Shown here: one piece after another, positions 19,451-23,225 of the stretch
Layout of the letters: the number at the start of each line of letters is the position of its first letter
Position numbering within the stretch: the stretch's first letter is position 1
Source of the DNA: an uncultured delta proteobacterium
GTDB lineage: Bacteria > Desulfobacterota > Binatia > UBA9968
DNA: 64,000 bases
Direction: 5' to 3'
NCBI GenBank assembly: GCA_963745035.1
Contig: CAVUVW010000014.1
Span: forward strand, 192,001 to 256,000
Notes under the pieces: model-generated
The model's database searches: none
What the model was told of the DNA's origin: nothing
The model's input: the letters and a program-made list of their open reading frames with translations, nothing else
Program-made: the position numbers and the translations under genes

Positions 19451-20494
19451 ATGAAGTCATCAATCCTGGCGATTCTGCTTGTGATGCTCGCGGTCGAGGT
19501 TGGATGGTGCCAATCCGCGCCGCCCAAGACCGCCGCCGACCTGGCGAAATATATGGGCGCCGATCGCGAGCGCGTGCTTTACGACGGCGCGAAAAAGGAA
19601 GGCAAGCTCGTCTGGTACACGTCGCTCACCATCTATAAAGAGATGGCCAAGTCCTTCGAAGCGCGCTATCCCGGCGTCACCGTGGAGCCCTATCGCGCCA
19701 CCGCGGTGAATCTCGTCAGCCGGATACTCAGCGAGGGACAAAGCAAGCGCTACCTCGTCGATGTCATCGAGACCACGCCAGGCTCGCTGATGCTGGTACG
19801 CGATAACAAGCTGCTCTTGCCCTACAACTCGCCGCATCTCGCCGCCTATCCGGAAAACTCGAAGGACAAGGCGCCGGGCGGTTTGTTCTACACCAGCGTG
19901 GATCGCGAATCGTACGCCGGCATCGGTTACAACAAAAATGCGATTCCAGCCGCCGACGTGCCGAAAAGCTGGAACGACCTGCTCAAGCCTTCGCTCAAAG
20001 GCAAGATCAGCATCAGCAACGAGGAAATCGCCACGCGGGTGGTCGGCTCGATGCTGAAAGAAAAAGGCGAAGGATTCATCAAGCAACTGGCGGCCCAGGA
20101 GATCAAACAGCACGGTCTCCCCGCGCTCGGCCTGAACGAGCTGATCGTCTCGGGCGAGGTGCCGCTCTCGTTTACCGCCGTCGACAGCAACGTGCGATTG
20201 GCCGCCGCGAGGGGCGCGCCCATCGCGTGGCTCCCCGGCGATCTCGTGCCCGCCAACGCGGGCAGCCTGGGCGCCTTCTTACATCCGCCGCATCCGCACG
20301 CGGCGCTGCTGTTCATCGATTTCATGATCGGTCCGGAAGGGCAAAAATTGTTCTCGGAAAAATACGGCTACGGCAGCCCGCGCAAGGAGCACCCCTTCAA
20401 ACGTTGGTATCCCGAGCAGGGACTATCGAGCTATGACTACGCCAACACCATCGAGAAGTGGAACAAGATTTTGCTGCAAATATCGAGGAAATGA
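19451..20494 (+). CDS. Extracellular solute-binding protein (AfuA/Fe3+-like family)
   Basis: Signal peptide; AKKEGKLVWYTS, PHPHAALLFIDF. Confidence 0.85.
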   Translation: MKSSILAILLVMLAVEVGWCQSAPPKTAADLAKYMGADRERVLYDGAKKEGKLVWYTSLTIYKEMAKSFEARYPGVTVEPYRATAVNLVSRILSEGQSKRYLVDVIETTPGSLMLVRDNKLLLPYNSPHLAAYPENSKDKAPGGLFYTSVDRESYAGIGYNKNAIPAADVPKSWNDLLKPSLKGKISISNEEIATRVVGSMLKEKGEGFIKQLAAQEIKQHGLPALGLNELIVSGEVPLSFTAVDSNVRLAAARGAPIAWLPGDLVPANAGSLGAFLHPPHPHAALLFIDFMIGPEGQKLFSEKYGYGSPRKEHPFKRWYPEQGLSSYDYANTIEKWNKILLQISRK

Positions 20495-20612
20495 ACGCTC
20501 TAGCAAGTGTTCAAAACGTTCAAGCCGTTCAATGGTTCGACACGCTCACCATGAGCGGCTCGGTTTGCCGCTCGTCCTGAGACTTGTATGATGGATGTCG
20601 GCTCTGAACCGG

Positions 20613-20666
20613 GAGTGCTCTGCTACAATGCCCGAAACGCGAAAGGCATTGTGCAAGGAGGCACTC
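20613..20666 (+). promoter_or_regulatory. Left-end hairpin covering the transposase Shine-Dalgarno (also 725-778)
   Basis: GAGTGC/GCACTC and ACAATGCC/GGCATTGT stems enclose AAGGAGG just before the ATG. Confidence 0.65.
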
Positions 20667-20669
20667 AGC

Positions 20670-21806
20670 ATGGGACACAAAGCGTTTATACCACAAGAGT
20701 ACGATGTGTTTGCGGGCTTGGACGTAGATAAAAGAAGCATCTCGGTGACCTTTAGCAACCATCAGCAAGGATTTGTCCGATCGTTGCACATGCCGTACAG
20801 CGTGGAGCACTTGCTCAAGCACGTACGCAAGCATTATCCCGATCAGAAGGTTGCGTTTGTCTATGAAGCTGGACCGACGGGGTATGGATTGTATGATGGG
20901 CTTTCGGCCCAGGGGTATAACTGCTTGGTGGCGGCACCTTCGATGATCCCTCGAGCTCCCGGGCAAAGAGTCAAAACCAATCGCCTCGACAGCCGAGGGT
21001 TGTCGGAGAGCTTGCGCGGTGGACAGTTGAAGAGCATTCACGTGCCTTCGCCCATTTATCGAGAGCTTCGCCATCTCACCCAGCTGCGCGACACCTTGGT
21101 CAGTGAAGTGGCGGGGATGAAGCAGCGGATTCAATCGCTGTTGCTGTTTGAGGGGATCGCTTTCCCAGCGGCTCCCGCTGGGAGCCGCTGGTCTTTGAAA
21201 GTGAAGAGCCAACTGAGGAAACTTCAGTGCTCTAAGAGCATGCGCTTTAAACTCGATCAGTTGCTCGACAACGTGGAGTTTTCTGAGAAGCAGGTCGTGA
21301 AAGTGACCAAAGAGATTCGCAAGCTCTGTCAGAACGATCCTGAACTGGCGCAGTGCATGAAGTATATGATGAGCGTTTGTGGCATCGGCTGGATTGTGGC
21401 CAGTCAGCTCCTGGCTCGTATCGGTGATTGGCGGGAACTTAAAAACGTGCGTCAGCTGGCAGGGTTTTTGGGGCTGGTTCCGAGTGAGGACTCTACGGGA
21501 GAGAAAACCGATCGAGGCTCGATCACCCGCACGGGACATGGCCGCCTGAGGAGTAAACTCATCCAAGCGGCCTGGTCGGCGATTCGCCAAGATGGTGAAC
21601 TTCGGGAGTTTTACAGTTCGGTATGCCGCAGACACCCGCGGCATATGGGTCCGCGAGTCGCCATCGTCGCCGTGGCGCGCAAGCTCAGCACCCGGATTGC
21701 TGCGGTGTTGATGGAACAACGGCCCTATGTGATGAGACAAAAAGTTCATTCAGCTCCTTTGACCCAAGAGGAGACATCGCCCCAGGGAACGGCTCGACGA
21801 CTTTGA
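20670..21806 (+). CDS. IS110-family transposase (RuvC-like DEDD domain plus Tnp20 domain), 378 aa
   Basis: AGLDVDK, YEAGPTG, KTNRLD, CGIG, GLVPSEDSTG, GSITRTG, AIVAVARKL; SD AAGGAGG. Confidence 0.96.
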   Translation: MGHKAFIPQEYDVFAGLDVDKRSISVTFSNHQQGFVRSLHMPYSVEHLLKHVRKHYPDQKVAFVYEAGPTGYGLYDGLSAQGYNCLVAAPSMIPRAPGQRVKTNRLDSRGLSESLRGGQLKSIHVPSPIYRELRHLTQLRDTLVSEVAGMKQRIQSLLLFEGIAFPAAPAGSRWSLKVKSQLRKLQCSKSMRFKLDQLLDNVEFSEKQVVKVTKEIRKLCQNDPELAQCMKYMMSVCGIGWIVASQLLARIGDWRELKNVRQLAGFLGLVPSEDSTGEKTDRGSITRTGHGRLRSKLIQAAWSAIRQDGELREFYSSVCRRHPRHMGPRVAIVAVARKLSTRIAAVLMEQRPYVMRQKVHSAPLTQEETSPQGTARRL

Positions 21807-21990
21807 GAACCGGGAGAAACAAACTCCTGACGGTTCGATCCTTGAGACAGAGATCCCGGGGCTTTGTGCCTTAGAGAGGGGCGCATTTTAAGTCAGTGTG
21901 ACGGCCGGGTGCCGTGCCACGCATAGCAGCAAGTCTCTCTTGGCCGGGAAAGAAGAAGGGATAAACTAAGAGCATTCGCGGTGTAGCGAC
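21807..21990 (+). ncRNA. Putative bridge/seek RNA in the right end of IS copy 2
   Basis: Donor guides CATAGCAG 21922-21929 and CAAGTCT 21930-21936; target-like GTTCGATCCTTGAG 21833-21846; several hairpins; boundaries approximate. Confidence 0.78.
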
Positions 21991-21996
21991 TTGACA
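21991..21996 (+). promoter_or_regulatory. -35 half of the circle-junction promoter (-10 TATGAT at 20587-20592; copy 1: 2100-2105 and 699-704)
   Basis: Joined ends read TTGACA-TCCACATAGCAGACTTG (17 nt)-TATGAT. Confidence 0.85.
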
Positions 21997-22126
21997 TCCA
22001 CATAGCAGCGAAGTCGAAGGATTCGCTCCGCTCAAACGTTTTGAACGGCTTGAACGCAGGCGCCGCGCCGGTTGAACGGAGTGACCGAAGGGAACGATTG
22101 AACGATGACTGCCGGCCGGCATTCCC

Positions 22127-22156
22127 TTGACACCTCCGTCAGGCGCACCCTATGAT
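22127..22156 (+). promoter_or_regulatory. Putative sigma70 promoter of the TctC-like gene
   Basis: TTGACA-18 nt-TATGAT. Confidence 0.6.
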
Positions 22157-22196
22157 CCGCGGGTGTTTCCGTTCTAATCGTAGGACCGGAGGGCCG

Positions 22197-23225
22197 ATGA
22201 AACGCTTCGCGTGCGTGCTATTATTTTTGCTGGCATCGACTAGCAATCTCCAAGCTCAGACCCCGTTCTATCAAGGCAAAACTATCCGGATCATCGTCGG
22301 CAATCTCGCCGGTGACGCCTACGATCTTTGGGCGCGAATCTTCGCGCAGCACATGGGCAAATACATCCCGGGAAATCCCACCTTCATCGTGCAGAACATG
22401 ACCGGAGCGGGAGGAGTGGTCGCGGCCAATTACGTTTATTCCGTGGCGAAGCCCGATGGGCTGACGCTGGGCACTTTCGGACCGTCGATGTACTTCGACC
22501 AACTGGCCAGGCGTCCCGAAGTGAAGTTCGACTGGGCGAAATTCACCTGGATCGGCACGCCGGAACAGACGGAATTTATCTTGATCATGCGGACCGATAC
22601 GCCGTACCAATCGATCGAGGACGTGCGCAAGGCCGCGCAGCCGCCGAAATGCGGCGCCACCGGCACGAGCACTTCCGGTTACTACATGCCGAAGTTTCTG
22701 GACGATGGGCTGGGGATCAAGTTCAACATCGTCACCGGGTATCCCGGCGGCGGCGAGATCGATCTCGGCATCGAGCGCGGCGAGCTGCAGTGCCGCAATC
22801 TGACGATCAGCACCTACTTCGCGCGCGAGCCTTTTCTAACCTGGCACAAGAAAGGTTTTGTCCGGCCGATCCTGCAAACGGCGAAGAAAAGAGATCCGCT
22901 CGTTTCCGACGTGCCCTCCATCTATGAGCTCATGGACCAACTCAAAACGCCTGAGGCGACGCGGCGAGTAGCGACCGTCTTGCTCGCGCCCGCGGTTTTC
23001 GGCCGGCCCATGGTGGCGACGCCGGGCGTGCCGCCGGACCGCGTGAAAATGCTGCGTGATGCCTATCACCGCTCGCTCAAAGACCCCGCGCTGCTCGAAG
23101 ACTTGAAGAAGCGGCGTTGGTCGGTGGACGCGATCAGCGGCGAGGAGCTGGCGAAGCTCGCGAAAGAAGTGGTGACCCAGCCGCCCGATGTCGTCGAGCG
23201 GATGATGAAACTCTTGGGTAACTAA
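22197..23225 (+). CDS. Tripartite tricarboxylate transporter substrate-binding protein (TctC/Bug family)
   Basis: FYQGKTIRIIVG, IPGNPTFIVQNMTGAGG, AKPDGLTLG, VTGYPG. Confidence 0.88.
   Translation: MKRFACVLLFLLASTSNLQAQTPFYQGKTIRIIVGNLAGDAYDLWARIFAQHMGKYIPGNPTFIVQNMTGAGGVVAANYVYSVAKPDGLTLGTFGPSMYFDQLARRPEVKFDWAKFTWIGTPEQTEFILIMRTDTPYQSIEDVRKAAQPPKCGATGTSTSGYYMPKFLDDGLGIKFNIVTGYPGGGEIDLGIERGELQCRNLTISTYFAREPFLTWHKKGFVRPILQTAKKRDPLVSDVPSIYELMDQLKTPEATRRVATVLLAPAVFGRPMVATPGVPPDRVKMLRDAYHRSLKDPALLEDLKKRRWSVDAISGEELAKLAKEVVTQPPDVVERMMKLLGN

Follow-up and report, generated by a model that had tools for sequence, protein, structure and literature searches.

In a 64,000-nucleotide (nt) stretch of DNA from an uncultured delta proteobacterium, hereafter called the window, our studies centered on an IS110-family insertion sequence and on a short sequence in its non-coding right end. 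All coordinates are positions within the window, which holds two copies of the element, at 694-2117 (copy 1) and at 20582-22008 (the intact copy). The short sequence is a 15-mer made up of CATAGCAG (21922-21929) and CAAGTCT (21930-21936), and it is found again at 2031-2045 in copy 1. We propose, with a probability of about 0.8, that the 15-mer lies in the donor-binding loop of an IS1111-group guide RNA (a seekRNA or bridge RNA) that has a two-loop layout and a handshake like that of IS621. Judged from sequence, its first half would be the left-donor guide, which reads the right end of the element plus the core dinucleotide AG in the sense orientation, and its ninth base would be a handshake base. 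The complementarity of the second half to the left end of the element is most likely incidental or structural. The element itself is most likely a new and abundant environmental member of the IS1111 group (IS110 family) with a conventional two-loop RNA.

These proposals draw on a comparison of the element with its relatives. Among 8000 scored, 5584 transposase relatives in metagenomes were found at E ≤ 1e-20. The loci used were three from genomes plus the best 80 of 414 metagenome relatives, with 74-94% identity. Both flanks were present in 73 sources, the genome's own five copies included, and these represent 71 different insertion sites; L035 and L076 were dropped because they duplicate the sites of L034 and L075. 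Counts of conservation and structure refer to 58 distinct relative sequences. Two loci were left out of the guide-pairing, handshake and tree counts only, which gives n = 69. One of them, L103, has an insertion of about 210 bp within the RNA region (element of 1647 bp), and the other, L060, has lost 45 nt that take in the linker hairpin and the donor loop's 5′ side (element of 1388 bp); both are natural variants that may point to dispensable parts of the RNA. In 401 genomes of the phylum, the search turned up distant homologues only (27-37% protein identity), and for this reason the comparison has no relatives of 40-70% identity whose ends vary while the RNA can still be aligned.

The 15-mer and the proposed donor loop

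The features of the proposed donor loop are as follows.

21889-21894, + strand: probable right-donor guide UAAGUC, complementary to the top strand at core G plus left-end bases 1-5
21896-21920, + strand: hairpin between both donor guides, 7 pairs kept in 58/58 sequences, variable loop
21922-21929, + strand: putative left-donor guide (C)AUAGCAG, sense of the element's last bases plus core
21930, + strand: candidate donor-loop handshake base, equal to the first base of the right flank
21932-21941, + strand: invariant tail AGUCUCUCUU, unchanged in 58/58 sequences with one gap

The 15-mer matches twice in the window and in none of 100 shuffles. As the original prediction had it, the first eight bases are identical to the element's last eight (22001-22008), and reverse-complementing AG plus the element's first five bases (20580-20586) gives CAAGTCT. 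In the relatives, AUAGCAG (21923-21929) is invariant save for one A>G change that retains a wobble. In distant elements (27-37% protein identity), the homologous segment reproduces the right end of the element concerned, namely ATATCAG at six loci and ATAACAG, ATAAGAG and ATAGGAAAG at one locus each.

Base 21930 follows the right flank. Among the 58 relatives, 41 have C here, 15 have G and 2 have T, and the base equals the first right-flank base (+1) in 68 of the 71 insertions. With the two rearranged loci taken out, the agreement is 67/69; shuffles average 38.5 and never exceed 48. A tree of the transposase-coding body alone requires at least 9 changes of base 21930 and at least 11 of the flank base; well-supported branches gave 6 independent pairs, of which 5-6 co-change and none changes in the opposite way (median p 0.031). 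The base thus appears to behave like the donor-loop handshake of IS621, in which a donor-loop base pairs with the target base beside the core after strand exchange (PMC11208158), and not like a pairing partner of the left end.

At the next base, 21931, the relatives divide into 37 with A, 20 with C and 1 with G, and its identity is unrelated to the left end. The left end of most loci is ACTTG; nine loci have ACCTG and one has ACTCG, with no compensating change at 21930-21932. The original prediction had read both halves of the 15-mer as donor-loop guides that would covary with the end junction in homologues. This is supported for (C)AUAGCAG, which is invariant within the family and follows the right end in the distant elements; it is not supported for CAAGTCT as the partner guide, where 21930 tracks the right flank and the variant left ends go uncompensated.

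The second donor guide is probably 21889-21894, in the 5′ part of the donor loop. The loop copies the layout of the target loop described below: guide, C, A, hairpin, G, sense guide ending in AG, and handshake base. Relatives read CAAGUC or CGAGUA at 21889-21894. Across clades, the 5′-side motif varies with the second base of the left end, G going with C and A with T (GUC/AC.., AUC/AT..). A(A/G)GUCA is found with AG|AC.. in L007, L032, L010 and L015, as in the family of the 20582-22008 element; AAAUCA is found with AG|AT.. in L006 and L009, and GGAUCA with AG|ATC.. in L021. In eight distant RNAs (six with a mapped left end), the reverse complement of the own left end was absent after the sense guide, and a ..GAUCA-like motif directly follows the donor guide instead. 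Of the two candidates for the top-strand donor guide, the 5′-side one is favored via the cross-clade covariation at one position. The cross-clade comparison was made without L005, L008, L012-L014, L020, L022, L027 and L030, in which no usable repeats or ends were found. One seemingly decisive compensation, the left end ACTCG of L003 with CGAGU at 21889-21893, was rejected because CGAGU is common with ACTTG too (G-T wobble).

The proposed target-binding module

Upstream of the donor loop, and partly within the transposase gene, lies a second module with these features.

21779-21862, + strand: target-binding module of 'short seekRNA' size, RNAalifold consensus of 58 sequences
21798-21805, + strand: putative right-target guide CGACUUUG, complementary to the top strand at right-flank positions +1 to +8
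21807-21836, + strand: hairpin between both target guides, from the consensus; the sole helix region changed on both sides (2 pairs)
21838-21848, + strand: putative left-target guide AUCCUUGAG plus AC, reading left flank and core in the sense orientation if one base is bulged
21866-21884, + strand: linker hairpin between the modules, consensus helix 5, 99.1% paired, in competition with an alternative long-range helix

RNAalifold places both target guides in one internal loop inside a conserved closing stem, and the closing stems 21779-21787/21855-21862 and 21793-21795/21850-21852 are 98.9-100% paired. The right-target guide clearly follows its flank. CGACUUUG pairs with CAAAGTCG at the copies on C2 and C10, or with CGAAGTCG at the 20582-22008 copy (one G-U). 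The mean contiguous run of pairs between a guide and its own flank is 5.32, compared with 2.19 ± 0.20 (maximum 2.8) in 1000 shuffles (n = 69), and 7-8 pairs form in 42 of the 69 loci, among which 27 distinct 8-mers occur. Examples from relatives, given as guide and flank, are GACAGG-C/CCTGTC, GAGAGC-C/GCTCTC, CGACGUUG/C(A/G)A(T/C)GTCG and GGCUUCG-C/CGAAGCC. Such covariation of guide and flank over 69-71 insertions bears out the earlier assignment of this region to an element-encoded guide RNA downstream of the transposase.

The transposase gene ends inside the region of the right-target guide (21798-21806), so that its final codons and its stop codon are shared with the guide. Retargeting therefore alters the C-terminal residues and shifts the stop, and in relatives the reading continues as ...GGCAGAACC... 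past this point.

The left-target guide (21838-21846) tracks left-flank positions −7 to −5, given one bulged RNA base. Pairs of guide and flank include UCC-U-UGAG/TCCTGAG, CCC-U-UGAG/CCCTGAG, UGC-U-UGAG/TGCTGAG, GCGAU-U-UGAG/GCGATTGAG and UCCGCAG/TCCACAG. With one bulge allowed, the run averages 6.58 against 5.59 ± 0.11 (maximum 6.04) in shuffles. The AC that follows (21847-21848) equals the element's first two bases in 66 of 69 loci, though this comparison has almost no variation to draw on, and may be a handshake-type extension. In IS1111 seekRNAs, the match to the top strand is described as lying 5′ of the match to the bottom strand (PMC11187229), and the order in the 20582-22008 element is the same.

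Proposed working of the guide RNA

The RNA would be made from the + strand, from a start near 21779, within the last part of the transposase gene, to at least 21941. Its strand is indicated by G-U pairs in the consensus, which occur in 48, 57 and 40 sequences at three pairs and so point to an RNA from the + strand only. Both modules would consist of a top-strand guide, A, a hairpin, G, a bottom-strand guide with the core AG at its 3′ end, and one or two handshake bases. In the target module, 21798-21805 would pair with the right flank and 21838-21846 with the left flank plus core, and AC would match the left end. In the donor module, 21889-21894 would pair with core G plus the left end and 21923-21929 with the right end plus core; base 21930, the ninth base of the 15-mer, would match right-flank base 1 as the handshake base and would be reset at each retargeting. 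The RNA would presumably be made and then bound by the transposase, and recombination would proceed as in IS621 or ISEc11.

When the opposite DNA strand is considered, the core AG reads CT, which is the IS621 core. In this mirrored frame, the 5′-side guides would pair with the bottom strand, and those on the 3′ side, which hold the handshake bases, would pair with the top strand, as in IS621, whose guide strand rules and core inclusion are described in PMC11208160. The order of target matches therefore looks reversed between the IS1111 and IS110 groups.

Sequencing runs offer a weak hint that the RNA is expressed. Fourteen DNA runs (soil, rhizosphere and winery metagenomes) contain most of the element, and six RNA-library runs contain parts of it. 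In all four of the RNA-library runs examined, from three studies, contigs cover 21781-21861, 21759-21862, 21759-21870 and 21753-21902, and two contigs extend to 21925 and 21928. Variant letters in the contigs sit at guide positions 21801-21805 and 21839-21840. We regard this cover as no stronger a hint because the contigs show no ends, strand or level and DNA may contaminate the libraries; missing cover and differences in depth were not taken as evidence. In the RNA-library runs X15, X16 and X18, several alternative letters occur exactly at 21801-21805 and 21839-21840, which suggests that differently targeted family members share the same soils.

Other explanations of the 15-mer

The complementarity of the second half could be a by-product of RNA structure, an idea compatible with the donor-loop reading proposed here and one that we hold to be quite possible, if somewhat short of probable. 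The tail AGUCUCUCUU (21932-21941) may serve as one side of a helix closing the donor loop, with GUCUCUCUU as its 3′ strand and GAGAGGGGC (21874-21882) as its 5′ strand. The tail would then resemble the left junction only through that junction's GAGAC. The helix is present in the minimum free energy (MFE) fold of the whole RNA and of its 3′ half, and 98.8% of its cells are paired in the 58 sequences, with one-sided changes from G-U to A-U. On the other hand, it lacks covariation, no pair being changed on both sides; its 5′ strand is short of three bases in the closest relatives L002, L034 and L036; and it excludes the equally conserved linker hairpin. AGAGAG/CUCUCU and the longer MFE helix, taken as closing stems of the donor loop, are compatible but have no covariation. 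A separate candidate, RNA-RNA pairing of GAGAC (21844-21848) with GUCUC (21933-21937), was rejected as unsupported, the tail being unchanged in three loci with an altered 21848.

The invariant AAGUCUC that follows the donor guide and the handshake base might also be an extra guide on the top strand of the left junction, which we consider unlikely. Read in this way, it may cover the last flank base, the core and left-end bases 1-4. If so, the 3′ side of the donor loop would address both crossover strands in one uninterrupted stretch, which might be used in excision, where substrates would be bound across both loops, or in holding the exchanged strand. The extra guide would then be a family-specific addition to the four-guide design, and it would come near to what the original prediction proposed.

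That prediction took CAUAGCAG and CAAGUCU as left and right donor guides that abut without a hairpin, in a compact architecture distinct from that of IS621. We find this quite improbable, and the fused arrangement is probably wrong; the match of the second half is not maintained in relatives. In its favor, the match is exact over 8 + 7 nt in the element. The tail is also complementary to the core plus left-end bases 1-3, and this AGUCU is invariant in 58/58 sequences, its DNA partner being unchanged in most loci too; as AAGUCUC, the complementarity runs from the last base of the left flank across the core to left-end base 4. In addition, the donor-binding bases of many IS1111 bridge RNAs are reported to lie in a multi-loop and not in a simple internal loop (PMC11208160). 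Against it stand the link of 21930 to the right flank instead of the left end, the variation of 21931 while the left end is unchanged, the uncompensated ACCTG and ACTCG ends, and the distant RNAs described above, none of which carries its own left-end complement after the donor guide. Moreover, the target loop of the same RNA has a hairpin between its guides. The stem said to enclose the fused guides, CGGCCGG (21902-21908) with TTGGCCG (21940-21946), is a feature of this copy only. It is paired in 48.4% of cells in the relatives, which is no better than in shuffles (as high in 142/500), and its 5′ arm falls in the variable loop and stem of the local hairpin 21896-21920.

It is scarcely credible that the internal copy of the right end is a second recombination end and not a guide, in the manner of the duplicated end boxes of ISPpu9, which end in AG and are reported to recombine in several combinations (PMC12288879), for although (CCAC..)ATAGCAG is common to the internal and terminal copies, 0 of 83 related loci end at the internal copy, every locus that reaches there has a complete right end, the internal copy is without an inverted repeat and a −35 box, and the idea gives no reason for 21930 tracking the flank of each insertion or for the matched target guides nearby.

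Several points weigh against the donor-loop reading that we prefer. The left-target guide requires a 1-base bulge and gains only modestly over shuffles. The 5′-side donor guide is short, with 21893 non-pairing in 6/58 sequences and 21894 being C in only 35/58, and the ACCTG left ends are without compensation at 21889-21894 too. Donor covariation rests on few distant elements because the donor ends of the family hardly vary, and the ends of those distant elements were deduced from repeats, mostly in single copies. The reading does not account for the 7-8 nt over which the invariant tail is complementary to the left junction. MFE z-scores are unremarkable (0.30, −0.76 and 0.01), and structural covariation is thin, with both sides changed in 2 of 33 pairs of a fold derived from the same sequences. 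Transcription is hinted at by contigs from RNA libraries, which may contain DNA. The transposase, at 378 amino acids (aa), exceeds the 330-350 aa quoted for IS1111. Finally, IS1111 seekRNAs are described in a short form of 82-96 nt and a long form of 145-172 nt, and the short seekRNA of ISEc11 alone supported transposition (PMC11187229); the donor loop is therefore perhaps dispensable in the IS1111 group.

The element, its ends and its transposase

The element and its protein-coding and terminal features are listed here.

20582-22008, + strand: intact insertion sequence of 1427 bp, with ends identical in five copies and an unoccupied site with a single AG
694-2117, + strand: second window copy (copy 1), from the alignment of both copies; the guide-RNA region is the same save for one hairpin-loop base
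20670-21806, + strand: IS110-family transposase of the DEDD/RuvC type, 378 aa, from Pfam, NCBIfam and PDB matches
20587-20599, + strand: left subterminal inverted repeat, from local alignment against the reverse complement of the right end
21991-22005, + strand: −35 box TTGACA (21991-21996), overlapping the right subterminal inverted repeat (21994-22005)

The genome has five copies of this element, all with the same ends. They start with ACTTGTATG... and finish with ...CACATAGCAG, between a left flank ...GTCCTGAG and a right flank C(A/G)AAGTCGAAGG. An unoccupied site in the same genome (C14, minus strand, 59602) has the left flank joined to the right flank with AG once. Based on this site, the element measures 1427 bp and makes no target duplication; the core AG is counted once, at 22007-22008, and the AG at 20580-20581 is that of the target. 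The five copies, at related sites, thus show site-specific insertion without target duplication at a shared core AG, and the core and ends named in the original prediction are confirmed.

In copy 1, the transposase frame is broken by three 1-base deletions (near 1020, 1152 and 1639), and there are two substitutions as well. This copy may be decayed and could still supply or use the RNA in trans; alternatively, the deletions may be assembly errors.

The 378-aa protein expected in the intact copy is present, and an alternative upstream ATG at 20595 would extend it to 403 aa. Both PF01548 (1.7e-14) and PF02371 (1.5e-21) were matched above cutoff, and NCBIfam NF033542 ("IS110 family RNA-guided transposase") was matched with 218 bits against a cutoff of 140. 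The nearest solved structures in the PDB are the transposases of ISCro4 (3e-14) and IS621 (2.7e-11). IS1111 transposases are described as having about 330-350 aa and the motif GL-P----S(T)G in the C-terminal domain (PMC11187229); the translation contains GLVPSEDSTG, yet the protein has 378 aa.

Other marks reported for the IS1111 group are subterminal inverted repeats of 7-17 bp and a guide RNA and longer non-coding region downstream (PMC11208160, PMC11187229). In the element, 88 nt of non-coding sequence precede the start codon and 202 nt follow the stop, and the guides (21798-21930) lie on the downstream side. The subterminal repeats match over 12/13 bp with one indel, 5 bases from the left end (7 with AG) and 3 from the right end. 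A promoter across the joined ends has been described for the family (PMC12288879, PMC11187229). At the sequence level, joining the ends would place TTGACA (21991-21996) before a spacer of 12 + 5 = 17 nt and TATGAT (20587-20592) as a −10 box, and the TTGACA box is kept in all relatives and also in distant elements. We place the element in the IS1111 group because of its subterminal repeats, its putative junction promoter and its long downstream non-coding part.

No contig with the circle junction (right end joined to left end) was present in the RNA-library runs examined. In run X15, four joints that skip the element resemble other copies of the repeat family in which the element inserts.

Relation to known systems

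The element is similar to the IS1111 elements with seekRNAs described in PMC11187229 (ISEc11, ISPa11 and ISKpn4). Features in common are the subterminal inverted repeats, the 7-base extension before the left repeat (counting AG), the long downstream non-coding region, a hairpin with the top-strand match on its 5′ side and the bottom-strand match on its 3′ side, a target module of about 82 nt within an RNA of about 165 nt, and natural retargeting via changes in the guides. A REP (repetitive extragenic palindromic)-type target is shared with ISPa11 (PMC11187229). In contrast to these three elements, ours has a longer (378 aa) and distantly related transposase and a right-target guide that overlaps the stop codon, and it is known here from its sequence alone.

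Like the bridge RNA of IS621 as described in PMC11208160 and PMC11208158, the RNA would have two loops, in each of which a hairpin separates the guides for the two DNA strands; the 3′-side guides would include the core, and 3′-side handshake bases would pair with the non-cognate DNA beside a core that reads CT on the other strand. Unlike IS621, the element has its RNA encoded at the right end and not the left, in a frame mirrored relative to the transposase gene. Its 5′-side guides reach one core base only (..C-A before the hairpin), the donor one spanning 5-6 nt, and it has long subterminal repeats. ISPpu9 and ISPpu10 of Pseudomonas putida are also IS110-family elements in REP sequences that recombine at an invariant AG at both ends (PMC12288879). 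ISPpu9 differs, according to that account, in belonging to the IS110 group and in having no terminal repeats, an upstream bridge RNA, extra small RNAs and duplicated end boxes.

The role of the long RNA is left open in PMC11187229, and the 3′ half of our element's RNA carries the right-end copy and the flank-tracking base. In the literature searched, we found no paper on the structure of the IS1111 donor loop; its layout may be shown in Extended Data Fig. 10c of PMC11208160 (predicted IS1111 guides) or in the supplements. The 3′ half of the IS1111 long seekRNA would be a donor loop with a handshake base that follows a mirrored, IS621-like logic, as predicted before and as the comparative evidence given here suggests. 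This is no new principle, and it corrects the unsupported reading of a compact architecture.

RNA-guided IS110/IS1111 recombinases are under development as genome-writing tools, and structural knowledge so far is all from the IS110 group (IS621, ISCro4). The soil-borne family described here is a large natural retargeting series, with the 27 right-target guides noted above and a donor-loop base that was repeatedly reset together with the target. It offers testable design rules for IS1111-type editors, namely the bases that co-change on retargeting and the guide that overlaps the stop codon.

Target repeat and unusual junctions

The target of the element is a dispersed REP-like repeat, ...GTCCTG-AG-C..GTCGAAGG, and the 71 unique insertions of relatives all fall within variants of a single dispersed repeat that is hairpin-like. 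Around the intact copy (20500-20581 and 22009-22100) and genome-wide, the repeat (..CCGTTCG.CCTGAGC...GTCGAAGG..) is flanked by longer inverted units with GTTCAA(A)ACG.. motifs. With loose patterns the genome yields 24-28 copies, and the unoccupied site on C14 is a perfect one. No bridge-RNA family was matched when 20400-22300 was searched against Rfam 15 at E up to 10; the four matches obtained (uup, CRISPR repeat, UCA1 and sR14) are at chance level and below gathering. The weak 'uup' match at 22016-22082 is one arm of the target repeat.

A few relatives have unusual surroundings. In L001 (100-165), the left flank and the first bases of the element are tandemly duplicated, in the form of a 21-base unit ending in ..GTCCTGAGAC that is present twice. 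L003 (1385-1410) has a 12-base unit, GAGACAGTGTAT, twice, again comprising left flank and first element bases. Both duplications are possibly scars that aborted or repeated recombination left at the left junction. In one distant genome, two IS1111-type copies (L007 and L028) lie inside a 163-bp repeated unit that is also found alone nearby, and this element may have a miniature repeat element as its target.

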